A stretch of 64,000 nucleotides of DNA, taken from assembly GCA_964587425.1 (NCBI GenBank), contig CAZPLB010000002.1:31285-95284 (forward strand), in the 5' to 3' direction. A program made the position numbers and the translations under genes. The DNA is from an uncultured Gammaproteobacteria bacterium (GTDB lineage Bacteria; Patescibacteriota; Microgenomatia; UBA8517). Shown here piece by piece: positions 5,089-57,080 of this stretch. The notes under the pieces are model-generated. The model did no database searches. It saw only the letters and a program-made list of their open reading frames with translations, and had not been told where the DNA came from. The number at the start of each line of letters is the position of its first letter. The stretch's first letter is position 1.

Positions 5089-6342
5089 TTAAGATAATTT
5101 GAAATTTTTCCTATGAATCAAGGCAAAAACTCCAAAACACATGAGAGCTAAAATTATAAGTAAGAATTGAACACCCAAAATTTCAGATATTGTAGCTGAG
5201 AAAAGAACTGGCAGCATTGTTGCAAGTGTTGTAAGAAACCAGAAATTCCCAAAAACTCTCCCCAAAAATTCCTTTGGTGTATTTTCCTGTAGATATGTAA
5301 CTGATGGAACCAAAATAGAGACAACAAGAAAACCAACTATGCCAAAAAGGATTACTCCAACAAATGTTCTGACAGAAATTACTTCAATTAATGGAAGTCC
5401 TAAAGTAACAAGTAATATATCAACACCTAAAAAGGCTATCGCCCCAAAAACAAATCTATTTTTCAACATAAACCTGGCATATTTTTTAGAAAGAATTGAG
5501 GTTCCAATTACAGCCCCAATTCCAGCAGGCATAACAATAAACAGTCCAGAACTCCCTGCCTTTATGGAAAGAATGCTTGTGGCAATTCCTGGGAGGTTAG
5601 TAACTATAACGGCTAATATGACCTGAAGCCACAACAGCAAAAGAAATGGCAGAAGAATGGTTTTGCTGTCCCTAATGAATCTATATCCTTCCAATATTTC
5701 AGTGAAGAAATGATTCACTTTGTCCTCAAACTCACCTTTCAAATTAAATCTCATCTTTGGTCTGTCATTTGGTAAGGTAAAAGTTGAAAGGTAGGCAGAA
5801 AAAAGCATGAAAGCAGCAAGAACTGTAGTTGCCCTAAATCCTAAAATTTCAGTAAATATTCCACCAAGTCCAAACCCAACAACCAAGGCAGACTGCTGGG
5901 TAATGAAAAATATTCCATTTGCCTGAGGAAGCTTCTCTTTTGGAACAAGTAGGGGCAATGCCGATGCTTCAGCTGGAACATAGAACTGATTAAGAAATGA
6001 ATAAATGAAAACTATTGCAAACGGCAAAAATACTAAATGCCTGTAAAGAAGGAGTGCATAAATTGCGATAGTAACTGCCTGAAGAATATTTGCATACATC
6101 ATTACATTGCGCTTCCCCAAAAAGTCCACTGCAGCAGCAGCTATTGGGCCAACAATGATTGCAGGCAAGGCATATGAAATCCAAATAAATGAAGTAGCAA
6201 TACTTGAATTAGTCTGCTCAAAAACCATGATGAGGATTAAAAAGCTCATCACATTAACAGTTAGCTGCGACAAAACTTGAGATACAAGTATTGCAACAAA
6301 GTTCCTGTTACTAAAAACACTATTTCTTAAAATTTTATTCAT
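5089..6342 (-). CDS. MFS-type transporter (about 12 TM segments), embedded in gatCAB operon
   Basis: Highly hydrophobic multi-helix protein. Start moved to the ATG at 6342 because the track start is a GTG; this start overlaps the gatA stop in ATGAATAA (translational coupling). Confidence 0.65.
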   Translation of the reverse strand: MNKILRNSVFSNRNFVAILVSQVLSQLTVNVMSFLILIMVFEQTNSSIATSFIWISYALPAIIVGPIAAAAVDFLGKRNVMMYANILQAVTIAIYALLLYRHLVFLPFAIVFIYSFLNQFYVPAEASALPLLVPKEKLPQANGIFFITQQSALVVGFGLGGIFTEILGFRATTVLAAFMLFSAYLSTFTLPNDRPKMRFNLKGEFEDKVNHFFTEILEGYRFIRDSKTILLPFLLLLWLQVILAVIVTNLPGIATSILSIKAGSSGLFIVMPAGIGAVIGTSILSKKYARFMLKNRFVFGAIAFLGVDILLVTLGLPLIEVISVRTFVGVILFGIVGFLVVSILVPSVTYLQENTPKEFLGRVFGNFWFLTTLATMLPVLFSATISEILGVQFLLIILALMCFGVFALIHRKNFKLS

Positions 6343-7711
6343 GCTGAAACATTTTACCCAATTGAAAGAGAGTTTCTTCACTATTTCTTGCTCCCATCAA
6401 TTGAAAGCCTAACGGTAATCCTTTTTTTGTTACACCATTTGGTATTGCCAAACTTGGAATTCCAGAAAGATTAGCAGTTGCCGCATATATATCAGTCAAA
6501 TACATTTTCAAAGGATCATCTACTTTCTCACCCAATTTAAATGGAGGTGTCGGTGCAACAGGCGCCAAGATAGCATCAACATTCTCAAAAACTTTATCTA
6601 CTTCCTCTTTAATAATTGTTCTAACTTTCATTGCTCTCAAATAGTATTTATCATGATACCCCGCCGAAAGGACATATGTTCCAAGCATAATGCGCCGCTT
6701 TGCTTCATCCCCAAATGCATCTCGCGCCTTTCCAAAACGCACTCCATCATAGCGACCAAGATTTGACGAAACCTCAGCAGGTTGAATTATGTAGTAAGCA
6801 GAAACAGCGTATTTGGTATGAGAAAGGTTTACCTCAACAAACTTCACCCCAAGTTTCTCAAATCTTTTTTTAGCATCCATAACTGCTTCTTCAACTTCTT
6901 TGTCCAAACCTTCTCCAAAAAATTCCTTTGGTATTCCAATTTTGAAATTAGTTTTAACTTTACTACTATCACCTATATTTTTGACTGTGCTGTCGTGTCC
7001 ATCTTCACCTTTCATGACATTAAAAACTGTTTCAATGTCTTCAACATTTTTTGTTATAGCTCCAACTGAATCAAGTGAACTTGCCATAGCAATTACGCCG
7101 TATCTTGAGACTCTTCCATAGGTTGGCTTGAGTCCAACTACACCGCAGTAAGAGGCAGGGAGACGTGTTGATCCGCAGGTATCAGTAGCAGTTGCAATCA
7201 AAGAGAAGTCAGAGGCAACAGAGGCTCCAGAACCAGATGATGAACCGCCAGGAACATGTTCACTATTAATTGGATTCAGTGTCAGACCAAAGTCTGAATT
7301 CTCGCCAGAACTTCCATGCGCCCATGCATCACAGTTTGCCTTGCCAATCATAATACCTCCCGCCTCCTCAATTTTTTTGACTACAGTAGCACTATATGCC
7401 GGAACATAATCTTCAAGGAGTTTTGCACCAGCTGTAGTTCGAACACCTTTTGTTGAAATAATATCTTTATGAATTACAGTTACTCCCAACAGTGGATATT
7501 CTTCAAATGCTTTATCACCTAGTTGAGAAATTAAAGAATCGCACTTTTTGGCTTGTTCAAATGCCAAATCCTCAGAAATGGTTAAAACAGCATTCAATTT
7601 TTTGTTTTTGCTTTTTATGTTCCCCAAATATGAATTAACCAAGTCCACTGCTGTAAATTCTTTTTTCAAAAGCCCGTCCTGTGTTTCTTTAATTGATTTA
7701 GGTAAGTTCAT
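6335..7711 (-). CDS. gatA: Glutamyl-tRNA(Gln) amidotransferase subunit A (amidase signature family)
   Basis: Amidase signature GGSSSGSGASVA plus Ser-cisSer-Lys context; position between gatC and gatB. Confidence 0.85.
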   Translation of the reverse strand: MNLPKSIKETQDGLLKKEFTAVDLVNSYLGNIKSKNKKLNAVLTISEDLAFEQAKKCDSLISQLGDKAFEEYPLLGVTVIHKDIISTKGVRTTAGAKLLEDYVPAYSATVVKKIEEAGGIMIGKANCDAWAHGSSGENSDFGLTLNPINSEHVPGGSSSGSGASVASDFSLIATATDTCGSTRLPASYCGVVGLKPTYGRVSRYGVIAMASSLDSVGAITKNVEDIETVFNVMKGEDGHDSTVKNIGDSSKVKTNFKIGIPKEFFGEGLDKEVEEAVMDAKKRFEKLGVKFVEVNLSHTKYAVSAYYIIQPAEVSSNLGRYDGVRFGKARDAFGDEAKRRIMLGTYVLSAGYHDKYYLRAMKVRTIIKEEVDKVFENVDAILAPVAPTPPFKLGEKVDDPLKMYLTDIYAATANLSGIPSLAIPNGVTKKGLPLGFQLMGARNSEETLFQLGKMFQHE

Positions 7712-10186: not shown

Positions 10187-11964
10187 TTCAGTAATTTCTC
10201 GAATTCTCTCAAACTCAAGGTATTAATTATATCATTCCCTGTTGCCCAACCTCGTCTTGCCACACTTATTCCCCACTTCATATTATCCATATTTTCAAGA
10301 TGATGAGTATCTGTATCTATTGTCATTTTAACTTTTCTTTTGACTGCGTCATGTACCAAGCTATCTGGCAAATCAAGGCGGGCGGGGTCTCCATTAATCT
10401 CAACCCAAATATTCTTTGCAAGACAAGCATCAAATATCTTCTCCCAATCAAGATCTACTCCCTCGCGTTCATTTAATTTGCGTGCTGTAGGGTGAGCAAA
10501 TATTCTCACTTTTGGATTATCAAAAGCTTTCAAAACCCGCTTCGTCATTTCATCACGACTCAAATCAAAACTAGAGTGAATCGAAACCAATGCAAAGTCC
10601 AAAGTTTCAAGACCTTCAGTAGGAACAGGCAAGCTTCCATCAGGCAAAATATCAATCTCGAGGCTATTGAATACTTTAAATCCTCGATTGTTTTTCTCTT
10701 TTGAAGTTGAGTAATTTAATTCGTCAACAATTTCACGCTTTCTCTTTAATAGTTTCACAATTTCACTCGCATTATGTTTTCCTTTGCTTGGATTGTGTTC
10801 AGAAAAGGAAATATATTCATAGTTGAGCTCAATTGCTCTTTTCACGATATCTTTCATGGAAGCTGATCCTATGTCATGACTTGTTTCAATATCAAAGTCA
10901 GAGTGGATATGAAAATCTCCTTTTATATCTTTCAATTCAACAAGTTTTGGAAGTTTACTTTCTAAAGCCAGTTCAATCTCGCCAGTATCCTCTCTCATCT
11001 CAGGTGGAATATAATCCATCCCTAAAAACCTGTAAAACTTTTCCTCATCAGAAAATTCAATTAGTTTTCTATTTTTATTGAGATCATATATTCCATAATC
11101 AGAGACACTAAGTTGGTGCTTCAATGCATACTCTCTCAAAGCAATGTTATGGTGTTTAGAACCTGTGAAATGCTGAAGTAAACTCCCATATGCCTGAGGT
11201 TTACACACCATCAAATCAATCTGGATGTTGCCAGGAATTATAATAGAGGTGCTGCGCTCACCCTTTTCTATAACTCTAGTTGCTCTTGGAAACTTCGTAA
11301 AGTGTTCAATTGTTTTATCAGGGTTAGTGGACAATGCCGATAAATCAATATCCCCTATCGTTGTCGCCTGACGCCGTAAGCTCCCAAGCATGTCAACTCT
11401 TTTGACTCCAGCATCTTTCCTTACCCACTCAGCAACTTCACTTGCAATTTCATATGCATACGGCAGGAGATGGCGGCTCGGTGGTTTCTTTTCATAGTCT
11501 GTAAGAGATTTTGATATCTTTTCTTGGGAATCAACTCCAAACCCTTCCATCTCTGCAATTCTCCCGTCAGTTATTGCTTTCCTTAAATCTTTCAAACTTT
11601 TCAACTTAAGTTCATTCACAAGTTTACTCGCAGTTTTCACACCAATCCCAGGTATTTTCATGAGTTCAAAAACTATTGGAGGAATCGTTTTGGTTAAATC
11701 ATCAAAGTGCTTTGACTTACCAGTCTTGAAAATATCACTAAGATGCTCTGCTATTGATGGCCCAATTCCAGGTACATCATCAAGCTTCCCTTCTTCCCAG
11801 AGATCCCTGAGTTCACTTGTTGCATGTTCTACAGCGTCCGCTGCTTTCTCATATGCAACTATCTTAAATTTGTTTAGCTTTTCATTCTGAAGTTTATATG
11901 CTGCAGCTACATCACGAAGAACTTCAGCAATCTCAACATTTCCCATTGTTTTTGAAGTCTTCAT
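10183..11964 (-). CDS. polX: DNA polymerase X family protein with C-terminal PHP phosphoesterase domain
   Basis: N-terminal Pol beta-like HhH/fingers region (GIGPSIAEHL, GIGVKTASKL) and C-terminal PHP motif DFHIHSDFD. Confidence 0.8.
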   Translation of the reverse strand: MKTSKTMGNVEIAEVLRDVAAAYKLQNEKLNKFKIVAYEKAADAVEHATSELRDLWEEGKLDDVPGIGPSIAEHLSDIFKTGKSKHFDDLTKTIPPIVFELMKIPGIGVKTASKLVNELKLKSLKDLRKAITDGRIAEMEGFGVDSQEKISKSLTDYEKKPPSRHLLPYAYEIASEVAEWVRKDAGVKRVDMLGSLRRQATTIGDIDLSALSTNPDKTIEHFTKFPRATRVIEKGERSTSIIIPGNIQIDLMVCKPQAYGSLLQHFTGSKHHNIALREYALKHQLSVSDYGIYDLNKNRKLIEFSDEEKFYRFLGMDYIPPEMREDTGEIELALESKLPKLVELKDIKGDFHIHSDFDIETSHDIGSASMKDIVKRAIELNYEYISFSEHNPSKGKHNASEIVKLLKRKREIVDELNYSTSKEKNNRGFKVFNSLEIDILPDGSLPVPTEGLETLDFALVSIHSSFDLSRDEMTKRVLKAFDNPKVRIFAHPTARKLNEREGVDLDWEKIFDACLAKNIWVEINGDPARLDLPDSLVHDAVKRKVKMTIDTDTHHLENMDNMKWGISVARRGWATGNDIINTLSLREFEKLLK

Positions 11965-11986
11965 CTAAATATATTATACCCAAATC

Positions 11987-12346
11987 CTACTTCGTCCGTG
12001 CATCAATAAAATCACAAACAATCTCCCTTATTTCCTCGGGCAAACCTCTCCAGTGAATAAGCATTATAACTTGTGCCTCACTTTTAACTCTAAGGTGAGG
12101 CATTTTCAAATCAAAAACATGAAGAACTTCTTCTGGAATCGGCATGTAAATAGATTTATCGCGATCGCTAATCACAACACATCCTGACTCCCTCTTAACT
12201 TCAATTATTCCCACGTATCCACTCGGCAAAAAATATTCTGTAAAAAATTCACTATCAGTTGAAGGACCAGAGTAAGCCAAAAATGTAGCAGATTCCTTTA
12301 ACTCAAATTCCCTTGGTCCAAATTCTGGCATAGTAACAATTAACAT
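11987..12346 (-). CDS. Hypothetical protein
   Basis: ORF only; track start is TTG, ATG candidates at 12346 or 12331. Confidence 0.35.
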   Translation of the reverse strand: MLIVTMPEFGPREFELKESATFLAYSGPSTDSEFFTEYFLPSGYVGIIEVKRESGCVVISDRDKSIYMPIPEEVLHVFDLKMPHLRVKSEAQVIMLIHWRGLPEEIREIVCDFIDARTK

Positions 12347-12400
12347 ATTAAACGAACTCAATTGGAGAATCAAATGAATTTATAGTAAAATACAGGTGTT

Positions 12401-12472
12401 GGCCTCGTAGTTCATCGGCTAGAACATACCCCTGTCACGGGTAAAAGGTGGGTTCGACTCCCATCGGGGCCG
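12401..12472 (+). tRNA. tRNA-Asp (anticodon GTC)
   Basis: Manual cloverleaf: acceptor GGCCTCG/CGGGGCC, D-arm GTTC..GAAC, anticodon stem TACCC/GGGTA with loop CTGTCAC, T-arm GTGGG-TTCGACT-CCCAT, discriminator G. Confidence 0.8.
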
Positions 12473-12477
12473 CATAG

Positions 12478-12897
12478 TCAAGTTTTTCTGAGGTAAAATT
12501 CGTTTTTCTTGAAGTTAAAAACAACTTCATCAAAGTAGTCAAAAAAACCTCGTCTTCCAAGTAGACCTTCTCCACTATTAGATACTTCATCGCTAAAAAT
12601 CACGGGTGCATTAAATTCAAAAGTATGCTTATCTTGAATCACTTTTAATTTTAATCCACAAACTTTTCCCTTCATTGGAGGTGCATCTTTTACTCCACCA
12701 AACGGAATTTCTTTTAGACGATTAAGATCTATTCCCAATAAACCCGCCAGTTCGGAGTGAAACACATTCGTAAATGCACCCGAGTCAAGCATCGCAGGAT
12801 AATTAAAAGCTACTCCTGTTGCTGGGTCTTCAACTCTAACCTCTAACATCGGAATTTTATCGTCTTTAATTTGAGTAAACTTGTATTTAAATTGCAT
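12478..12897 (-). CDS. Retropepsin-like aspartic protease domain protein
   Basis: MLDSGAFTNVF active-site D(S/T)G motif in a retroviral-type protease fold context, 139 aa. Confidence 0.6.
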   Translation of the reverse strand: MQFKYKFTQIKDDKIPMLEVRVEDPATGVAFNYPAMLDSGAFTNVFHSELAGLLGIDLNRLKEIPFGGVKDAPPMKGKVCGLKLKVIQDKHTFEFNAPVIFSDEVSNSGEGLLGRRGFFDYFDEVVFNFKKNEFYLRKT

Positions 12898-13084
12898 TAC
12901 CTACATTGGGGAGATACTTCGCGGGCACTTTATACAAAGTAGGAATTTTCACACCTTTCTTCACGGCAGAAGCATAAACTTGCTTTGCTGTTTTACCACT
13001 TGAAACAACAATCCTTTTATTCGGTTCTAATGCAACCCACTCACCTCCATATTTTTTAATTAGCAAAGATAAATTCTTAAACAT
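12887..13084 (-). CDS. DUF5678-like small protein (65 aa), upstream partner of the aspartic protease
   Basis: YGGEWVAL..VVSSGKTAKQVYASAVKKGVKIPTLYKVP pattern; 11-nt overlap with the protease start indicates co-translation. Confidence 0.45.
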   Translation of the reverse strand: MFKNLSLLIKKYGGEWVALEPNKRIVVSSGKTAKQVYASAVKKGVKIPTLYKVPAKYLPNVGNAI

Positions 13085-13162
13085 ATTCAGAAAAGCATGT
13101 GTATAGAATAATTATCACACAATTCAGTCAGCAAATCCACTACTTAGGTACAAATATCACAC

Positions 13163-14281
13163 TTACTTGTAAATAATCACCCCAGCTTGATTAAAAGTTG
13201 CCCACTTGTGATCAAATTGGCTTCTAGACCAATACACTTGCCCCACAAGTGAGTCATTCACAATTATCTGTGTTGGATTACTGGCTGACCCCACAAAGCC
13301 AACAGCAACGACTGTATGCTCCCCAGCAACCGCAAAAATATCTTTCCCACCAGATGTCTTCCAGTGTGTTGGTCTGCCGCTACTGCTATATACCCAAATA
13401 ATAACTGGGTTACCAGCAGAAATTGCTTTTGTTAATTTTTCAATATTTCCCCCTTGAAACGCTTCAGCCTTCCCATAATTTCTTGCAACCCTTTCAATCG
13501 GACCCCAGTAAACACCATATCCATCCCTCATTTGATTGCCATCCACATTTCCAACAAAGTGTTCATATGGATCTCCCCAGGTTCCGTCAATGTGAGGCGT
13601 ATTATCAACTCCAACCTGAGCCATTAGATCTTCTTCTGTTTTTGAAATACCTTTATAGGCAAGCGCCATACGGAGAGATGACACCTCACAGGAAAGTGTG
13701 TGCTGCTGCAAGTATGCAGGAACAGGGAGTTTGAAAGTTTGTGGTTTGGGGGCAACTGCAGCTACTGAATTCGAAGCAGTCAAAGCTTGAGCATTCTGTG
13801 TCTTGAAGGAAAACTGAACTTCATATGGTTTACTTTTCCGAATAGTATTTTCAATACCTACAATTTTGACAGTGTAGGTAGTATTTGCCTGAAAACCATC
13901 TTGGGGATAAAAAACTACTTTTCTATACAAATGTGTTAAGTAAACTGGATCTTCAAAAACCCATGTTCCAGGAACATCAGGGGTAATGCTTTTCTCCATA
14001 CTCCTGCGGCTAACTGGCCTGTCAAACTGCAAATATATTGGATCGGTTAAATTGATTTCGTCACCTTTTAAATTGCTTTTTGAAATTTCGGGAGAAGGAA
14101 GAAGCAGTAAACCAAGAAGTATAGCTGCCACTGCTACAATTGCCAAAGCTGCCAAGATAACTGGCTTCACCTTGCGTTTTGCCAAATAAACAGCAGCGAG
14201 TAAACCCAAAAAGACAGCAGTAAATGAAACTAAATAATCTGAAGGCAGAAGCGGGGTTCCCGCAACAGGATTGGTAAACAT
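13163..14281 (-). CDS. Membrane-anchored C39-like (BtrH-like) cysteine peptidase domain protein
   Basis: N-terminal TM helices, a beta-rich middle domain, and a C-terminal region with the Cys/His pattern of C39-like peptidases (..HTLSCEVSSLRMALAY.. / ..GEHTVVAVGF..). Confidence 0.5.
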   Translation of the reverse strand: MFTNPVAGTPLLPSDYLVSFTAVFLGLLAAVYLAKRKVKPVILAALAIVAVAAILLGLLLLPSPEISKSNLKGDEINLTDPIYLQFDRPVSRRSMEKSITPDVPGTWVFEDPVYLTHLYRKVVFYPQDGFQANTTYTVKIVGIENTIRKSKPYEVQFSFKTQNAQALTASNSVAAVAPKPQTFKLPVPAYLQQHTLSCEVSSLRMALAYKGISKTEEDLMAQVGVDNTPHIDGTWGDPYEHFVGNVDGNQMRDGYGVYWGPIERVARNYGKAEAFQGGNIEKLTKAISAGNPVIIWVYSSSGRPTHWKTSGGKDIFAVAGEHTVVAVGFVGSASNPTQIIVNDSLVGQVYWSRSQFDHKWATFNQAGVIIYK

Positions 14282-35153: not shown

Positions 35154-37484
35154 TTGTGTTTCTTTAGCAATATAGTTATTATTGTTTACATGAACAACCA
35201 AACGTATAATCTACCTTTGGAAAGAGATACAGAAACCCTCATTGATAGAACTCTTGAAAACCTTGGCTGGATTGATGACCCTAAAAGTAATGCTAGAAAT
35301 GTATACAAGCAACAACCCAAAACCAGCGATCAAAAACGAGCATTGAATGGTCTTTTCCCTGATTACGTACTATATAAAACTGGCTCAGATAAACCAATTA
35401 TTGTGATTGAAGCCAAAAAGCCAAGAAAAAATATTCACGAAGCACTAAAACAAGGATTAGATTACGCACAAAAGATTGGAGCTCCCATTGTTTTTGCCAC
35501 TGACGGAATTTTTACTAAAACACTGCATATTAAAACAAAGAAACCACTCACTCTTAACGGTGAAGAACTTGATGAACTTATTAGGGAGTATATCGCCTTA
35601 CAATATATAGATACTAGCGATTTAACCACTAAAGACAAAAAAGTAATCGAGTCTCGAAAAGAGCTAATCGGTATATTTGATCATGCCAATGACATATTGC
35701 GTGGTGAAGGACTCCATGCAGGAGTTGATAGATTTAGTGAATTTGCCAATATTCTTTTTTTGAAGATAATATCTGAGCGAGAGGATATTAACGAACAAAA
35801 TGGGGATGCTAACGTAATACCAAGAGAATACCGCTGGAACTTCTTTAAGAATAAGAGGGATAACGAGTTGAGACAATATATCAACTCGATTGTCCTTAGA
35901 TATTTCAGGGAAAGATATAACGATTCAAATATATTCACAGATCTTCGGATTAAAAACCCGAATCGATTAAAGAAAATAATAGAAATGCTCGATCCTCTTT
36001 ATCTGATAGATACTAAAGCAGATATAAAAGGTGATGCTTTTGAGTACTTCTTAAAGTCGTATAGCTCGGGAAATAGTAATGATCTTGGGCAATATTTCAC
36101 ACCTAGACACATCGCTAAAACTTTAGTTAAGCTACTGAACCCCCAACTTGGTGAAAAGATCTATGATCCCTTCTGTGGAACAGGTGGGATGTTGACAGAA
36201 TCTTTCAAATATATTTTCAATCGAATGCCACAGAATAGAAATTCTGAAGATATTTTGAAAACTAGTACAGTATACGGACGAGAGTTAACTAGCATCGCCA
36301 GAATCGCCAAAATGAATATGATATTGATAGGTGATGGCCATAGTAATATTGAGCAGACAGACAGTCTTGAGCACCCATTATCAAATGAATATGATGTGGT
36401 AATAACAAACATCCCATTTGCACAAGAAACTGAGTGGGGAAACCTTTATGACCTACCAAGCAGAAATGGTGACAGTATATGCCTACAGCACTGCCTTAAA
36501 TCTCTAAACTCTAATAATCCAAATAGTCGAGCTGGAATTATTGTACCAGAAGGTTTCTTGTTTGATTCAAGATTTGAGAAAGAAAGAGAGTGGTTAGTTG
36601 AAAAATTTGACTTACAAACTGTTATTTCTCTACCTTCTGGCGTTTTCCTACCATATACTCCACAAAAGGCTAGTATTTTGCATGTAAAACTAAGAGATAA
36701 AGCTAAGAAGAAGAAAAATGTTTGGTTTTTTGACGTAAAGTCAGATGGTTACACCTTAGATAATTACAGGAAACCAACTGATAAAAATGACTTAGACAAT
36801 CTACTGGACGGCATACATTTTGATTCACTGGAAATAAGCGAACTAAGAAAAAGAAAATATGAATTAGTTAGATCACTCTATATTAAAGGTGGAATAATTG
36901 GAGGGAAACATAAAACAGTAGATCTAAAGTCGATAGCAACCGTTGCGTTTGGTAATTCGGCACCACAAGACCTTGATAGTTTCATAGACGGAACCCACCC
37001 TTTCGTTAGAGTCTCCGATCTCGCAAAGAAACATATAGCATTTAATTTAACAGATACTAGAGATTTGCTTAACGACAAAGCAGTAAAAAATATGCGACTT
37101 TTTCCTAAGGGAACGATACTTTTTCCTAAAAGTGGTAAATCAGCTCTGAAAAACCATAGAGGTATATTAGGCCGTGACGCTTATCTGGTAAGTCACTTCG
37201 CTTGTATTATCCCTAATGTTGACATAGTTGATCCCTACTACCTGTTTAAATGTTTAATAAATATTAAAGCTCAGGACATCATAGTGAACGAAGGCTATCC
37301 TTCAATCAGGAAGGAGACGTTTGAAAATCTACAGATTCCACTACCACCAATAGAGAAACAAGAGGAATTAGTTAAAGAAATGAAAGAAATAGTAGATTTA
37401 GAGTATAGAGTTAACGAGCTTATGAGTAATATGGATATACGATTTGAATCTGAAAATGCTACTTTAGAGAACAATGACAAATAA
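35154..37484 (+). CDS. Single-polypeptide Type IIG-like restriction-modification enzyme (HSDR_N/Mrr-like PD-(D/E)xK nuclease domain + gamma-class N6-adenine MTase + one HsdS-like target recognition domain)
   Basis: N-terminus PDYVLYKTGSDKPIIVIEAKKP (HSDR_N motif); MTase motifs GQYFTPRHIAK (X), DPFCGTGGML (I), VVITNIPFAQ (IV, NPPF-type); C-terminal ~300 aa with HsdS-like TRD features (..KIGDLFE-like block, IPLPPIEKQEELV conserved HsdS repeat motif). Confidence 0.75.
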   Translation: MCFFSNIVIIVYMNNQTYNLPLERDTETLIDRTLENLGWIDDPKSNARNVYKQQPKTSDQKRALNGLFPDYVLYKTGSDKPIIVIEAKKPRKNIHEALKQGLDYAQKIGAPIVFATDGIFTKTLHIKTKKPLTLNGEELDELIREYIALQYIDTSDLTTKDKKVIESRKELIGIFDHANDILRGEGLHAGVDRFSEFANILFLKIISEREDINEQNGDANVIPREYRWNFFKNKRDNELRQYINSIVLRYFRERYNDSNIFTDLRIKNPNRLKKIIEMLDPLYLIDTKADIKGDAFEYFLKSYSSGNSNDLGQYFTPRHIAKTLVKLLNPQLGEKIYDPFCGTGGMLTESFKYIFNRMPQNRNSEDILKTSTVYGRELTSIARIAKMNMILIGDGHSNIEQTDSLEHPLSNEYDVVITNIPFAQETEWGNLYDLPSRNGDSICLQHCLKSLNSNNPNSRAGIIVPEGFLFDSRFEKEREWLVEKFDLQTVISLPSGVFLPYTPQKASILHVKLRDKAKKKKNVWFFDVKSDGYTLDNYRKPTDKNDLDNLLDGIHFDSLEISELRKRKYELVRSLYIKGGIIGGKHKTVDLKSIATVAFGNSAPQDLDSFIDGTHPFVRVSDLAKKHIAFNLTDTRDLLNDKAVKNMRLFPKGTILFPKSGKSALKNHRGILGRDAYLVSHFACIIPNVDIVDPYYLFKCLINIKAQDIIVNEGYPSIRKETFENLQIPLPPIEKQEELVKEMKEIVDLEYRVNELMSNMDIRFESENATLENNDK

Positions 37485-51810: not shown

Positions 51811-52206
51811 TCACATCACAACTAATTCAGCTAATGCACATAGTACAAGATCAATTTGTGATGATGTCAGTGGTTTAAAACCAAATTGTAATAAAAACAC
51901 TCTAGAAACCTCATGGTAATTAACTTCCGCTGATATCCGTCCATTTTCCTGGCATATTTTAACTAAACTCAAATTTTCAAGTTCTCCACCCTTCTTTTGA
52001 TATCCAATACTTTGCTCCATACCCTTCTCCAAAACTGACATACCTATCCATTTCCTCTCCGAATGAAAATAGGGATCATCACACCAACTACGAAAAGTAC
52101 TCTCATAAGCCTTAAAAGTTTTTTCTTGTGAAGGAAGCAATCCACTTAAAATATTAGCTCTTATATAGTTAGCAAGCTCCTTTGGCGTATTTCCCTCAAT
52201 ACTCAT
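51811..52206 (-). CDS. Hypothetical protein (131 aa)
   Basis: ORF only. Confidence 0.35.
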   Translation of the reverse strand: MSIEGNTPKELANYIRANILSGLLPSQEKTFKAYESTFRSWCDDPYFHSERKWIGMSVLEKGMEQSIGYQKKGGELENLSLVKICQENGRISAEVNYHEVSRVFLLQFGFKPLTSSQIDLVLCALAELVVM

Positions 52207-52256: not shown

Positions 52257-52838
52257 ATGTATTTGCACAACAAAAATTTGTGTGCTACATTTGGCAGCAT
52301 GGGAATATCAAAAGAAATTGAAAACGAACGTTTACAATTTGGAACAAGACCAAAAACTTTCACACAAGCATTGGTTCGTTTGCCTGACCATGGAGTATTT
52401 GTGAGAGGTGACACGGAACTTGAATCGCTCATGTCTCTCCGGTTTCAATTAACCTACGCTTTAAAAATGGGTTGCTCGGCAGACTCTCTAACCGAAAGAA
52501 TGTACCCACTAGAACCAAAAGAAATGGCTCTTCTCGAAAAGTTTTCTTTCAAAAGAAATGAAGTAATCGCAACTGGTAAATGGATCGCCCTAGGGAGAAA
52601 TAAAGTATGGAATACAATGTTTGGATCCGAAGATGACGATTACAGACACTACAATGTAACATCGATTACTCCAACCCTCGACAGGAAACGACCACAGATG
52701 ATTTGCATACAAGAACACGATGATTATTCCAAAACAAGCTGGGATTGGGAAACAGACGCTATTTCAACATTCTATATTGGGATTATCACAAGCAAAGAGC
52801 TTAGTGAACTTAAGAAAGCACTCCAGGAAGAAATTTAA
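52257..52838 (+). CDS. Hypothetical protein (193 aa)
   Basis: ORF only; 4-nt tail-to-tail overlap with the ftsZ stop region. Confidence 0.35.
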   Translation: MYLHNKNLCATFGSMGISKEIENERLQFGTRPKTFTQALVRLPDHGVFVRGDTELESLMSLRFQLTYALKMGCSADSLTERMYPLEPKEMALLEKFSFKRNEVIATGKWIALGRNKVWNTMFGSEDDDYRHYNVTSITPTLDRKRPQMICIQEHDDYSKTSWDWETDAISTFYIGIITSKELSELKKALQEEI

Positions 52839-55117
52839 TTTATCTTTCGGCGAAGAAATGCTGGAATCTCAAGATCCTCTTCAACCTGAGGCTCATCTTG
52901 TGAATTATTGTTGTCATCCCCATTACTATCATCGTTTGTGTTCTGTTGGTTTTGCTGTGTTTCTCCAATCATCCCCTGTACAGGAGGCGGTTGTGTACGT
53001 GTTGTTACCCCCCTATCAATTTGTGCCATTCTGCTCCTGGTTTCATCAAATCCAGTTGCAATAACTGTAATCCTCACTTGATCTGCATAACTATCCTTTA
53101 TAACGTTTCCGTAAATAATATTTGCATCGGGGTCCGCAGCTGAAGTAATAATACGCGCTGCCTCATCAACTTCAAACATAGTTAGATCCGGTCCTCCAGC
53201 AATATTGAATAAGACTCCTCGAGCTCCTTCAATTGATAGATCTAGAAGAGGGGATGAAACTGCAGATCTTGCTGCCATCTGAGCCCTATTTTCCCCAACT
53301 CCAGTTCCAATTCCCAAAAGTGCTGTTCCAGCGTCACTCATAATGGTCTTTACATCAGCAAAGTCAACGTTAACTAGTCCTGGCACAGTTATAATTTCAG
53401 CTATACCAGCTACAGCCTGCCCTAACACTGAATCTGCTACCTTGAAAGCTTCAAGAAGTGTAACTTTACGGTCAACAACATCCATTATTCGCTGATTTGG
53501 AATAACAATAAGGGTATCAACTTCTTTCTTTAAGTTTTCAATTCCCTCTTCAGCAAGGATTGTTCTCCTAGCCCCCTCAAAACTAAATGGTTTTGTAACT
53601 ACTCCAACAGTCAATGCCCCAGACTCTTTTGCAAGCCGAGCTACAACCGGTGCAGCTCCCGTTCCAGTATTGTGTACCAAAAATCCTTCACTCACGAAAT
53701 TATGGCTTCCCTCTACTGTGATATCATAAACATCCTCTTCACCAAGATTAGTTACAGATTTGACAGCTGAAAAACCAAAGTTCTTGAAAAACTCATCATC
53801 TGTCGCTCCTCTATATCCATAAGTAAAGCCGCTCCAATGTCTTGTTCTCGTTTTTTCTTCCAAGCTTCTGTCCAGTTGATATAGTTTATACACTCTAAGA
53901 CTCCATGAGACCGCCTGAATCGGTTTTGGTGAGTTAGGAGCTTGAATAGTTCTAGTTCTCGTAGAAACATTGCCAGTCCTTAAACCCAAAACATTGCAAA
54001 GAACCTTTAATTGTTTAATGAGGTTCTCACTTGACATCTCAAACCGCAATTCAAGCTTGTCTTTACCACTATGGTTTTTTTGCTTTAGATAACTTCCATC
54101 AGCATCAGCCAATCCCAAAATAAATTGTTTTTTGTGATCATCTGAAAGCTTGAATATCCAGTTTGGAACTTCTTTCTCTTTTGCATGTTTATCTAAACCA
54201 AGTTCATAAAGTATTTCATAAACTTTCTTGGAGTTTCCATAATACCAACTAGTCGTACTTTTCTTCATTTCAATTCCAAATATGTCCTTTATTAACTTTA
54301 GATATTTACTATTTAGATCTTCTTTTACAGATGGAGAGAAATGGATTTTCCAGCTATCTTTACTTCTTGAGATCCATCCATCACCCAATAAAAATCCATA
54401 TAGTCTACAAAATTCGGGTGTAAAAGAAACTTTAGATTTAAGATTAATTTCTTCTGTGATCTCAGGAGTACTTTTTAAAATAACCACCAAATCATCTGGC
54501 TGAAGATTTTGTGCTTCCTCCCATTTAAACTTGAATTCACTAAACCTATTTTTCTTATCTGGATTTACCGGTTCAACCTTCATAAAAGGGTGATCATATG
54601 AAGCAACAAGTGCGTTGTTGTTTGTTTTCACTTCGTAAACCTTTTTTATTCCAGTTCTCATTGAAGCTAAAACTTTTCTTTTAGCTAGCTTTCCTTCATC
54701 AAGAGTGTAAACATGCGAACCTTTCTTTATTGTGTCTATTCTCACCGGTCCTTCGGGGTTTGTGTAAACCAAGGAGCTACCCCTAAGACAGCCTCCACCC
54801 ATGCCTGCAGTCACGAATATCATGTCAGATCCAACTAATAACTCCTTGATTTTTTCAACAGACTCTTCAGCTGCCATTTTACCAACTTCAGGATTTCCAC
54901 CAACTCCAAGACCTTTAGTCAGTTTCTCACCAATTTGAACTTTAGTAGGAATGCTATTTGAAAGAAGAACTTGAGCATCTGTATTAACTGCAATAAATTC
55001 AACCCCGCTAATGAGTCCACCATCAACCATGGATTCAACAGCATTGCCGCCGCCGCCGCCAACACCAATAACTTTAATTTTTGCAATTCTCGCCGAATCA
55101 GGTTTAACTAGCGCCAT
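52835..55117 (-). CDS. ftsZ: Cell division GTPase FtsZ, interrupted by an in-frame intein (760-aa precursor)
   Basis: N-extein KVIGVGGGGGNAVESM..FVTAGMGGG and C-extein TGTGAAPVVARLAKE..GARR.. reconstitute the tubulin signature GGGTGTG; acidic C-terminal tail with conserved ..DLEIPAFLRR.. FtsA-binding peptide. Confidence 0.85.
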   Translation of the reverse strand: MALVKPDSARIAKIKVIGVGGGGGNAVESMVDGGLISGVEFIAVNTDAQVLLSNSIPTKVQIGEKLTKGLGVGGNPEVGKMAAEESVEKIKELLVGSDMIFVTAGMGGGCLRGSSLVYTNPEGPVRIDTIKKGSHVYTLDEGKLAKRKVLASMRTGIKKVYEVKTNNNALVASYDHPFMKVEPVNPDKKNRFSEFKFKWEEAQNLQPDDLVVILKSTPEITEEINLKSKVSFTPEFCRLYGFLLGDGWISRSKDSWKIHFSPSVKEDLNSKYLKLIKDIFGIEMKKSTTSWYYGNSKKVYEILYELGLDKHAKEKEVPNWIFKLSDDHKKQFILGLADADGSYLKQKNHSGKDKLELRFEMSSENLIKQLKVLCNVLGLRTGNVSTRTRTIQAPNSPKPIQAVSWSLRVYKLYQLDRSLEEKTRTRHWSGFTYGYRGATDDEFFKNFGFSAVKSVTNLGEEDVYDITVEGSHNFVSEGFLVHNTGTGAAPVVARLAKESGALTVGVVTKPFSFEGARRTILAEEGIENLKKEVDTLIVIPNQRIMDVVDRKVTLLEAFKVADSVLGQAVAGIAEIITVPGLVNVDFADVKTIMSDAGTALLGIGTGVGENRAQMAARSAVSSPLLDLSIEGARGVLFNIAGGPDLTMFEVDEAARIITSAADPDANIIYGNVIKDSYADQVRITVIATGFDETRSRMAQIDRGVTTRTQPPPVQGMIGETQQNQQNTNDDSNGDDNNNSQDEPQVEEDLEIPAFLRRKIN
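53669..54790 (-). mobile_element. Intein (374 aa) with LAGLIDADG homing-endonuclease domain, inserted in the FtsZ G-box
   Basis: Starts with Cys (CLRGSSLVYT, block A) immediately after GMGGG and ends ..FLVHN before the +1 Thr; two LAGLIDADG-type motifs (YGFLLGDGWI, ILGLADADGSY). Confidence 0.75.
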
Positions 55118-55148: not shown

Positions 55149-56408
55149 CTAGGGCAGAAGATCTTTAATACTTTCTATGACTTTACCAAGAATTCCCGAA
55201 TTTGGCAACCGCATCTTCTGACCAATACCACCCTGCGGTTGCACTATACTCTGTCGGCTGCCGTAAAGCAAAAGACCAACACAAACAGAATATGGTGGAT
55301 CCATTATTTCATCTACTAGTCCTCCAACTCCACCTGGCTTTCCAAGTCGAACAGGAAGCTGCATGCTGCGCTTAGCCGAATCAATTACTCCAACAGTCAT
55401 TGCCCCTCCTCCAGTTACAACAGCTCCTGATGGAATTTTATTAATAAGGTTCGCCTTCTCCAAGTCGAGTTTCACCATAGTAAAAATTTCATTCAACCTC
55501 GGTCTTATAATCCCTTCCACCAAAGTTCTTCTTGAAACTTTCTTTACTTCCTTAGTATCAGGATCTGTTATCTCAATACTATCCTTAGATTCCTTTTGTT
55601 TGAAGTCCTCAGAAAGCGACAATTTAATGCGCTCTGCAGCTTCAAGTGAAACCCTGAGTCCAATCGCCAAATCATTTGTAACGTTACGAGCTCCAATCGG
55701 AAGCGAGCCGGAATACGAAAGGCTTCCATCAACATAAGCTGCAATGGTAGTAGTTCCAGCCCCAATATCAATTAGTACACACCCTAATTCTTTTTCAGTC
55801 TCAGACAAAACTGAGTAGGATGCAGCAAGGCCTGAAAACACAATTCCTTCAATCGCAATCCCAACCTCATTTGTAGTTTTTGAAAGGTTTTTCAAAGCTG
55901 GAGATGAAGCCGTAATAAGATGGGTGAGGACTTCAAGCCTGACTCCAGTCATTCCAACTGGATCTTTGACTCCAGCCTCGCCGTCAACTATAAATTCCTG
56001 TGGAATAACATGAATTATCCCCCGAGATGCCGGTTGTGGAAAAGCTCGAGCCGCCTCAATCACACGCTCTATATCATTTTGCGTAACTTCCCCCTGAGGA
56101 TCTGAAACTGCAACAACTCCTGTTGAGTTTTGGGATGAAATATGTCCGCCACCAACAGAAACAAATGCGCTGCTCAGACTATACCCAGCCATCCGCTCTG
56201 CAGCTTCAACTGATGAAATAGTTGCTTCAACCGCCTCTTCAATGTCAACTATCTGTCCCTTCTTCACTCCTCGCGATGGGGTAGTGGCCGCGCCAACTAC
56301 ATTAATGGAAGTTTCAAAAGAAATAGAATCAACAATGACTTGACCAATTATGGTCGTTATTTTTGAAGACCCAATATCTATTCCAGCTATAATTTTGTTT
56401 TTACCCAT
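55149..56408 (-). CDS. ftsA: Cell division protein FtsA (actin-like ATPase)
   Basis: N-terminus IAGIDIGSSKITTIIGQ phosphate-1 motif and overall actin fold signatures (VLIDIGAGTTTIA). Confidence 0.85.
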   Translation of the reverse strand: MGKNKIIAGIDIGSSKITTIIGQVIVDSISFETSINVVGAATTPSRGVKKGQIVDIEEAVEATISSVEAAERMAGYSLSSAFVSVGGGHISSQNSTGVVAVSDPQGEVTQNDIERVIEAARAFPQPASRGIIHVIPQEFIVDGEAGVKDPVGMTGVRLEVLTHLITASSPALKNLSKTTNEVGIAIEGIVFSGLAASYSVLSETEKELGCVLIDIGAGTTTIAAYVDGSLSYSGSLPIGARNVTNDLAIGLRVSLEAAERIKLSLSEDFKQKESKDSIEITDPDTKEVKKVSRRTLVEGIIRPRLNEIFTMVKLDLEKANLINKIPSGAVVTGGGAMTVGVIDSAKRSMQLPVRLGKPGGVGGLVDEIMDPPYSVCVGLLLYGSRQSIVQPQGGIGQKMRLPNSGILGKVIESIKDLLP

Positions 56409-56441: not shown

Positions 56442-57080
56442 TCACCTCAAAACAGGGTTTTTAAACCGTAGATCAATTGTAGAGACTTCCTTCACACTTG
56501 GCAACCGTGAAAGAATGAGGTTTAGTGCCCCAAAAAGATAATCCCTATCCCCCTCCAAGGGAAATATAACAGTCTTTCCTTCTATTCCGCCAACTATCAT
56601 ATGATCGCCTGCAATCTTTACTTGTCTACCTCCGTAGAAAGTATTTATATCAGAAAAGGTAAGAATAACAAAATTCAAATATTTTGAATCAATCTTTCCA
56701 CTCACTCGGGGGAGCTGTGAACTAGTAGCTTCTCCAACTAAAAATCCACTTTTGTCATATAGCTTTAACTTTCCATCTCCCTGATCCCAAGCAATAATTG
56801 CTTTTCTTTCAATTAAATTGACAGAAAGTTCATTAAGAAGCTTAAACCTAATTGAAAATTTAATAATTCGCTGATCACTTTTCAGAACTGCCTCAACACT
56901 TCTGAAACTATCAAGCAATCCTTTCCCTTCAGCCTTTGAAAGTTTGTCCACCAAATAGCTTTGGCAGTTTCCAAATTGACTAACACAAACAACTTTTCGA
57001 ATCTGGAAGAATTTGAGAAAACAAACTATGGCTAAAAAAAGAAAGCCAAGTGCAAAAACCGCGATTAATACCTTTTTCAT
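56442..57080 (-). CDS. ftsQ: FtsQ/DivIB-like protein (TM anchor + POTRA)
   Basis: Single N-terminal TM, ~210 aa, position between murG and ftsA. Confidence 0.5.
   Translation of the reverse strand: MKKVLIAVFALGFLFLAIVCFLKFFQIRKVVCVSQFGNCQSYLVDKLSKAEGKGLLDSFRSVEAVLKSDQRIIKFSIRFKLLNELSVNLIERKAIIAWDQGDGKLKLYDKSGFLVGEATSSQLPRVSGKIDSKYLNFVILTFSDINTFYGGRQVKIAGDHMIVGGIEGKTVIFPLEGDRDYLFGALNLILSRLPSVKEVSTIDLRFKNPVLR

Follow-up and report, generated by a model that had tools for sequence, protein, structure and literature searches.

The closest structural matches to the element described here are the TliVMA and PhoVMA inteins of Thermococcales (7qsu, 7qss, 7qst), in which a Hint splicing domain encloses a nested, two-motif LAGLIDADG endonuclease and which are inserted into the nucleotide-binding loop of an essential nucleoside triphosphatase (NTPase). 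Class-1 splicing is likewise joined to a LAGLIDADG endonuclease, in a matching fold, in PI-SceI of yeast VMA1 and in PI-PfuI and PI-TkoII of archaeal ribonucleotide reductase and PolB. Related enzymes of the same superfamily home into ultra-conserved targets as part of the insertion sequences of ribosomal RNA (rRNA) genes in the bacterial candidate phyla radiation (CPR) (PMC11270868). In the 64-kb stretch of contig CAZPLB010000002.1 analysed here, referred to as the window, an insert of this kind lies inside ftsZ, the gene of the division GTPase, where it divides the tubulin signature of the T4 loop.

The explanation as a whole is considered very probable: a canonical intein at Gly109|Thr110 splits the T4 loop, which contacts GTP, and belongs to a family specific to FtsZ that has crossed between bacteria and archaea at least twice and is met in the different states expected of a homing cycle. 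With it, the tubulin/FtsZ GTPase joins the NTPases invaded at a nucleotide-binding loop, a preference long noted for the P-loops of ATPases. No description of a natural FtsZ intein was found in the literature searched, where the papers joining FtsZ and inteins concern engineered tags, and neither FtsZ nor tubulin appears in the main text of a 2016 intein survey (PMC4760082). In public records these proteins are named “hypothetical protein”, “LAGLIDADG family homing endonuclease” or “cell division protein FtsZ”. The intein is of an ordinary kind, its host and site had not been described before, and its distribution across CPR bacteria and DPANN archaea is notable.

An intein within the T4 loop of FtsZ

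The original prediction, made from the letters of the window, had assigned to ftsZ an open reading frame (ORF) of 760 residues and placed within it a 374-residue insert at 53669-54790, covering residues 110-483 in the arrangement GMGGG|C...HN|TGTG. The length of the ORF was borne out, and the coordinates of the insert were confirmed to the base. The precursor is composed of the following parts.

52835..55117, minus strand: ftsZ precursor ORF, 760 residues plus the stop codon, with Pfam Tubulin, FtsZ_C, Intein_splicing and LAGLIDADG_3 on one polypeptide
54791..55117, minus strand: N-extein, FtsZ residues 1-109, ending ...FVTAGMGGG with the first half of the T4 loop (tubulin signature); Pfam Tubulin stretch 13-109 of the precursor
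53669..54790, minus strand: intein, 374 residues, Cys1...His373-Asn374, supported by profile matches, the AlphaFold2 model and Foldseek
52835..53668, minus strand: C-extein, opening at the nucleophile Thr+1 in TGTGAAP with the second half of the T4 loop, followed by FtsZ_C, the linker, the C-terminal EIPAFLRRKIN tail and the stop codon

On the precursor, the Pfam Tubulin match is broken into two parts and is accompanied by FtsZ_C. When the exteins were joined in silico, as had been proposed as a check, a full and collinear FtsZ of 386 residues was obtained, which matches the FtsZ equivalog TIGR00065 in one stretch with 418.7 bits (cut-off 295.2) and covers Pfam Tubulin positions 1-189/190 unbroken. 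Its alignment with B. subtilis FtsZ (2vam) is collinear and ungapped across the GMGGGTGTG junction and sets the insertion point at G108|T109 in B. subtilis numbering; the claim that the insert lies inside the tubulin signature was upheld by this alignment. The signature GGGTGTG is regained on in-silico splicing, the intein being seated at GGG|TGTG, and the peptide expected to span the junction of spliced FtsZ is ...FVTAGMGGGTGTGAAPVVAR. The TIGR00065 match, the tubulin signature, the C-terminal tail EIPAFLRRKIN and the adjoining ftsA all identify the protein as an FtsZ of the bacterial type.

Within the intein, the splicing and endonuclease regions are arranged as follows.

54788-54790, minus strand: codon of Cys1, precursor residue 110
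54461..54790, minus strand: N-terminal splicing (Hint) region, intein residues 1-110 (NCBIfam intein_Nterm over 1-70; beta strands of the model over 7-105)
54752-54790, minus strand: block A, CLRGSSLVYTNPE, starting at Cys1
54575-54619, minus strand: block B, NNALVASYDHPFMKV, with S64-Y-D-H67 (S64-x-x-H67)
53831..54460, minus strand: LAGLIDADG homing-endonuclease domain, intein residues ~111-320 (Pfam LAGLIDADG_3, LAGLIDADG_1 and LAGLIDADG_2; model; Foldseek; deleted in seven mini-intein relatives)
54377..54406, minus strand: LAGLIDADG motif 1, RLYGFLLGDG; Asp137 predicted to be catalytic
54095..54124, minus strand: LAGLIDADG motif 2, FILGLADADG; Asp231 predicted to be catalytic
53669..53830, minus strand: C-terminal splicing region, intein residues 321-374 (NCBIfam intein_Cterm over 353-374; PDB sequence matches over 338-374)
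53690-53737, minus strand: block F, EDVYDITVEGSHNFVS, with D356 and H363
53669-53689, minus strand: block G, EGFLVHN, followed by Thr+1
53669-53671, minus strand: codon of the terminal Asn, precursor residue 483

Each of the four intein blocks looked for (A, B, F and G) was recovered, catalytic residues included, and both of the anticipated LAGLIDADG-like motifs were found, with Asp at motif position 8 in each. The insert is no chance feature, scoring above the cut-offs of Pfam Intein_splicing PF14890 (60.6 bits against 35.8 when searched alone), LAGLIDADG_3 PF14528 (33.5 against 22.5) and LAGLIDADG_1 PF00961 (25.5 against 23.1), as well as those of NCBIfam intein_Nterm TIGR01445 (25.8 against 24.5) and intein_Cterm TIGR01443 (35.2 against 15.6). 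Across an alignment of 82 homologous inteins, C1, H67, H363, H373 and N374 are invariant, residue 64 is Thr in a single sequence and Ser in the other 81, and D356 is kept in 81. The +1 position of the extein is occupied by Thr in the window and by either Thr or Ser in every intein-bearing FtsZ relative. Of the endonuclease residues, D137 is kept in 73 of the 76 and D231 in 74 of the 75 sequences aligned at those columns, both being invariant in alignment A1, and the mean pairwise identity of the endonuclease domain is 60%, compared with 64% and 68% for the two splicing regions.

The AlphaFold2 model of the intein, built on a 25-sequence alignment, reached a predicted local distance difference test score (pLDDT) of 91.1 and a predicted template modelling score (pTM) of 0.89. 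It predicts a beta-rich Hint domain formed by residues 1-105 and 338-374, with a double alpha-beta-beta-alpha-beta-beta unit between them, and the predicted pattern of secondary structure over residues 125-301 fits a pseudo-dimeric LAGLIDADG fold. When the model was compared with the PDB by Foldseek, the top matches were TliVMA 7qsu (E value 8e-22, template modelling scores 0.73/0.75), PhoVMA, PI-SceI, PI-PfuI and PI-TkoII, with 7qst also among them; these endonuclease-bearing inteins were followed by mini-inteins and free LAGLIDADG enzymes, including I-DmoI, I-OnuI and I-AniI. By every sequence or predicted-structure criterion the insert is a canonical intein of class 1 in which a two-motif LAGLIDADG endonuclease is embedded, and the conserved residues and predicted fold suggest that it is competent to splice. 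It is plausibly also still an active homing endonuclease, given the conservation of Asp137 and Asp231 and an endonuclease domain whose conservation falls little short of that of the splicing domain.

Following established intein chemistry, the 760-residue precursor would be unable to form the nucleotide pocket until splicing has run its course. Cys1 would form a thioester with Gly109 by an N-S acyl shift, Thr+1 would attack this thioester by trans-esterification to give a branched ester, and Asn374 would then cyclise, aided by His373 and by Asp356 and His363 of block F, to free the intein. An O-N shift would finally give a normal Gly-Thr peptide bond and a 386-residue FtsZ with intact GGGTGTG. 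Because the unspliced precursor is presumably inactive, division here is expected to depend on splicing, unless another ftsZ lies outside the window; no second ftsZ and no second intein were found within the 64 kb. The only visible division GTPase would be made as an inactive precursor, and division would be at least kinetically dependent on protein splicing.

The FtsZ-intein family, its hosts and its presumed homing

When 5.8 billion proteins were searched with the precursor, 82 of the best 120 matches were clusters of intein-bearing FtsZ, protein clusters being defined at 90% identity. Five further intein-bearing FtsZ came from a word-indexed search with the intein alone, which brings the family to at least 87 protein clusters. 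This second search gave 17 matches, all FtsZ, and missed full-length precursors. The gap to other inteins came to light when 1.84 billion cluster representatives were scanned exhaustively with HMMER: FtsZ inteins reached 540 bits and 64% identity, and the next intein 227 bits and 33%. The same gap was observed in the metagenome scan, where FtsZ inteins are at least 52% identical and other inteins at most 34%, and about 40-50 metagenome loci, partly overlapping the clusters, carry an FtsZ intein at the same site; a scan of GTDB species representatives with the single intein yielded 4 loci. In all intein-bearing FtsZ examined the insertion site is identical, GGG|C...HN|(T/S)G. FtsZ had been called a very unusual host, which stands for the literature searched, where no intein-focused paper mentions FtsZ, and falls for the sequence databases, given these numbers of clusters and loci. 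The nearest inteins outside FtsZ reside in SufB, subtilases, a terminase and an Mrp/ParA ATPase. By these comparisons the FtsZ inteins form a closed allele family: identity is 52% or more between its members and does not exceed ~40% with any other intein.

The hosts were assigned to a domain from the extein fused to the intein and from neighbours on the same contig, independently of taxon labels. By C-terminal tail, 11 are bacterial FtsZ with IPAFLR, 12 are short bacterial-type proteins ending ..VTVIATGF and 57 are archaeal, of the LGIDFVE type. The archaeal hosts are FtsZ1, and the named carriers are DPANN on the archaeal side and Patescibacteria/CPR on the bacterial side. At the archaeal loci L001 and L011, genes for L7Ae, S28e, L24e, Spt5-L11 and a TFIIS-type protein stand around the carriers P0009 and P0056 (contigs of 246 and 55 kb), while P0031 and P0034 follow ftsA and have YbeY, HisRS, LepB, ComEC, SecDF and a sigma-70 factor nearby. 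The best match of the spliced P0009 extein is M. jannaschii FtsZ1 (423 bits), and that of the window extein is B. subtilis FtsZ (403 bits).

According to established LAGLIDADG biology, the freed intein would act as a site-specific endonuclease that cuts intein-less ftsZ at the DNA for ...TAGMGGG|TGTGAAPV, and repair of the double-strand break would then copy the intein into the cut allele. The presumed homing target corresponds to the joined extein flanks, reconstructed over 48 bp for the window as GTGACTGCAGGCATGGGTGGAGGC|ACTGGAACGGGAGCTGCACCGGTT. It is kept at every first and second codon position across 16 bacterial and 23 archaeal distinct sites, with the consensus ACn nnn GGn nTn GGn GGn GGn | ACn GGn ACn GGa GCn gcn CCn GTn, and this conservation is a plausible reason why one endonuclease could home into both domains. 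Among the exteins nearest to that of the window, P0013 (78%) holds a 171-residue mini-intein, P0080 and P0086 (both 72%) hold no intein, with P0080 in the same mraY..ftsA-ftsZ context, and P0002 (71%) holds a full intein. Seven mini-inteins were found across both domains, in which the endonuclease was lost independently, by deletions with differing end-points. The empty, full and mini-intein states fit a homing cycle. In practical terms, the family offers natural full-length and mini-inteins that are expected to splice at a Gly|Thr junction, and a predicted meganuclease directed at one of the most conserved stretches of prokaryotic DNA.

Several carriers have features of their own. In the bacterial lineage of L009 (6170-8221) and relatives such as P0027, P0031, P0032, P0035 and P0042, the short FtsZ has an extein of ~305 residues that ends ..VTVIATGF and lacks both the linker and the IPAFLR tail that binds FtsA, though ftsA stands directly upstream. 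In P0050, P0067, P0071, P0072 and P0073 (loci L022, L035, L044-L047 and L065), the half of the T4 loop that follows the intein is degenerate, with SGSASLP, TCSGAAP, TGTPTTP, SGTAGIS or TGSSCLP in place of TGTGAAP, and the +1 nucleophile is kept. On the CPR-type contig of L010, the intein-bearing ftsZ is directly followed by a gene at 10423-13755 (+) for NrdD, an anaerobic ribonucleotide reductase of 1110 residues that also contains a LAGLIDADG-bearing intein, so that two intein-invaded essential genes stand side by side.

Inheritance, mobility and rival explanations

The inteins and the exteins tell different histories. The window intein is 53-66% identical to the inteins of archaeal FtsZ, for corresponding exteins of 43-47%, and against the closest bacterial relatives the values are 63-70% and 60-71%. 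In all 1071 full-length bacterium-archaeon pairs, intein identity exceeds extein identity (means 61.5% versus 45.2%), and the best cross-domain pair combines 80.4% in the intein with 45.9% in the extein. In neighbour-joining trees (corrected p-distances, 200 bootstraps), the exteins fall into 21 bacterial and 51 archaeal sequences at a split with 100% bootstrap support. In the intein tree, each side of a split with 100% support contains inteins from both host domains, the eight-member clade of the window being supported at 92%; at least two switches of host domain are therefore required, and the sequences imply at least two inter-domain transfers of the FtsZ intein. At the DNA level, identity between bacterial L009 and archaeal L011 is 73.9% for the intein and 59.4% for the extein, compared with 60.7% and 66.6%, respectively, between the archaeal loci L001 and L011. 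FtsZ inteins of bacterial and archaeal hosts occur together in three metagenomes, Hainich H51 (Hain-H51 L019/L026/L027), Ga0210057 (L029/L033/L049) and Ga0209542 (L021/L025/L039), with a best same-sample cross-domain intein identity of 73.4%. An intein allele whose phylogeny conflicts in this way with that of its hosts is a clean, traceable marker of gene flow between CPR and DPANN, which are ultra-small and co-occur in groundwater.

The shared insertion site in both domains, and a family with no close relatives elsewhere, could also be explained if the intein had entered FtsZ before bacteria and archaea split and had then been inherited vertically and lost nearly everywhere. This is very improbable, as in every one of the pairs compared the domains differ less in the intein than in the FtsZ extein, itself under strong constraint, and as the intein tree mixes at full support the domains that the extein tree separates at full support. 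Moreover, the inteins of the window clade are nearer to those of one archaeal-host clade (63.5% mean) than to those of other bacterial carriers (55.5%), the exteins showing the reverse (43.4% and 49.6%), and in L009 and L011 the GC content at third codon positions (GC3) of the intein, ~26%, is far below the 42% and 50% of the respective exteins. Equally, since all carriers are uncultured metagenome-assembled genomes or metagenome contigs, and several bear generic taxon labels (“archaeon”, “Patescibacteria group bacterium”), the sharing between domains might be sought in chimeric contigs or mislabelled genomes. Such an assembly or binning artefact is scarcely credible, however, when the host domain is read from an extein fused in the same ORF rather than from labels, when neighbours on the same contig agree (ftsA, YbeY, ComEC and SecDF on one side, L7Ae, S28e, Spt5 and TFIIS on the other), when contigs extend up to 246 kb, and when the architecture is met again in dozens of assemblies made independently (NCBI, ENA, JGI and Logan).

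More weight belongs to the possibility that the intein is decaying in this genome, where it might still splice while its endonuclease is dead and no longer mobile. Many natural inteins have inactive endonucleases, and the composition of the window intein, fully ameliorated to the host, the repeated loss of the endonuclease in the mini-inteins of the family and the modest LAGLIDADG_3 score of 33.5 bits are in keeping with such decay. It is nevertheless considered rather unlikely in view of two intact LAGLIDADG motifs with Asp at position 8, catalytic Asp residues kept in ~97% of full-length relatives, an endonuclease domain nearly as conserved (60%) as the splicing regions (64-68%) and a fold predicted with high confidence. 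Another reading, in which the intein is no mere selfish passenger and is kept as a useful conditional switch on division, with splicing and FtsZ activation answering to redox state, metals, temperature or host contact, would draw on a GTP pocket that the insertion disables until splicing, on splicing residues invariant over 82 relatives, on mini-inteins that persist in frame in both domains without an endonuclease and hence without mobility, and on a Cys at -6 in archaeal hosts (CGLGGG|C), in principle able to pair with Cys1; conditional splicing has been documented for other inteins. A switch of this kind is judged improbable: an intein is hard to delete precisely when it sits in an essential gene, so the persistence of mini-inteins is also expected of a selfish element, the distribution is patchy and the closest relatives, which have no intein, evidently divide, the conserved catalytic residues of the endonuclease point to selection for mobility, and no sensor feature was identified. 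A wider idea, likewise improbable, sees in the FtsZ intein something other than a mere parasite: in bacteria and archaea that are ultra-small and episymbiotic, division could be gated post-translationally, with FtsZ gaining GTP competence only on splicing, which would be tuned to redox, metal or host cues. On this reading, the repeated passage between CPR and DPANN would also mark direct exchange of DNA between both radiations.

Some observations weigh against the preferred explanation, that of a splicing and homing FtsZ intein transferred between domains. Thr is found at +1 in only a minority of the inteins that occur in nature, so that splicing could be slow. No near-identical cross-domain intein pair was found (best 80% in amino acids, 73% within one metagenome), and because of this the transfers, while much younger than the domains, are not taken to be recent. 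The trees are neighbour-joining rather than maximum-likelihood trees, and many of their internal nodes have low support, so that the number and direction of transfers are given only as “at least two”. No vector was identified, and as for a viral one, no FtsZ intein appeared in IMG/VR scanned with the intein profile. The window intein itself is long-resident and shows no compositional trace of arrival. Finally, the host of the window is probably a member of Patescibacteria/CPR, a label that rests on the nearest intein-bearing relatives, which are labelled Patescibacteria group bacterium.

Two candidates were set aside along the way. Compositional foreignness of the window intein was rejected, its GC content of 35.2% being close to that of the window (36.3%; extein 42.7%) and its GC3 of 28.9% close to that of the extein (26.4%). 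The only IMG/VR match above 50%, L018, which is also the best viral match to the FtsZ-intein profile, was rejected as a viral relative of the FtsZ intein, being an unrelated mini-intein that shares only blocks F and G; this locus, at 5101-6879 (+) of a 122-kb contig, encodes a phage portal-like protein with a mini-intein of ~150 residues, CLPSY...VVHN|S.

Genomic context and comparison with known systems

Upstream of ftsZ the order is ftsA, a gene in the position of ftsQ, murG, ftsW and mraY, the two nearest being placed as follows.

55149..56408, minus strand: ftsA, directly upstream of ftsZ; the orthologous neighbour in L007 has the Pfam domains SHS2_FTSA and FtsA
56442-57080, minus strand: ftsQ-position gene between murG and ftsA, 212 residues, with an N-terminal hydrophobic segment

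The ftsQ-position product has no Pfam match at E<=0.001, and neither has its counterpart of 226 residues in L007. Elsewhere in the window are DnaE, IleRS, ParB and five transfer RNAs. Because of the mraY-ftsW-murG-ftsQ-ftsA-ftsZ cluster, together with DnaE and ParB, the host is a bacterium with a standard division cluster. Downstream, ftsZ is adjoined by two ORFs with no Pfam match, at 51811-52206 (-) with 131 residues and at 52257-52838 (+) with 193 residues, the end of the latter overlapping the ftsZ stop codon by 4 nucleotides. Farther away, at 35154-37484 (+), an ORF of 776 residues unites HsdR_N, N6_Mtase (HsdM-like) and Methylase_S and looks like a fused restriction-modification protein.

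Compared with the systems introduced at the outset, the FtsZ intein is familiar in construction and distinct in sequence and site. The TliVMA and PhoVMA inteins, though nearest in structure, share only 16-20% identity with it, and they occupy another homing site, in the catalytic subunit of an A/V-ATPase. PI-SceI, PI-PfuI and PI-TkoII differ further in being larger (~454-537 residues), with extra DNA-recognition regions, at 12-16% identity and in unrelated hosts. The mini-inteins of DnaB and DnaX (Npu DnaB 4o1r, Ssp DnaB 1mi8, Spl DnaX 7cfv) were the only solved structures found by PDB sequence search, and this through blocks F and G only (VYDITVEGSHNFV..VHN), which align closely; they are without an endonuclease, reside in replication proteins and are similar over only ~35 residues. 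The inteins of SufB, subtilases, a terminase and the Mrp/ParA ATPase, drawn from the library of 1.84 billion proteins, resemble it more fully, being full-length, bearing LAGLIDADG_3 and aligning over 1-374, yet with at most ~40% identity, at most 227 bits compared with 540, and other hosts and sites, they do not count as the same intein allele. The insertion sequences of CPR rRNA genes, whose LAGLIDADG enzymes home within the same bacterial radiation, are introns removed at the level of RNA, whereas the FtsZ intein is translated with its host and removed as protein.

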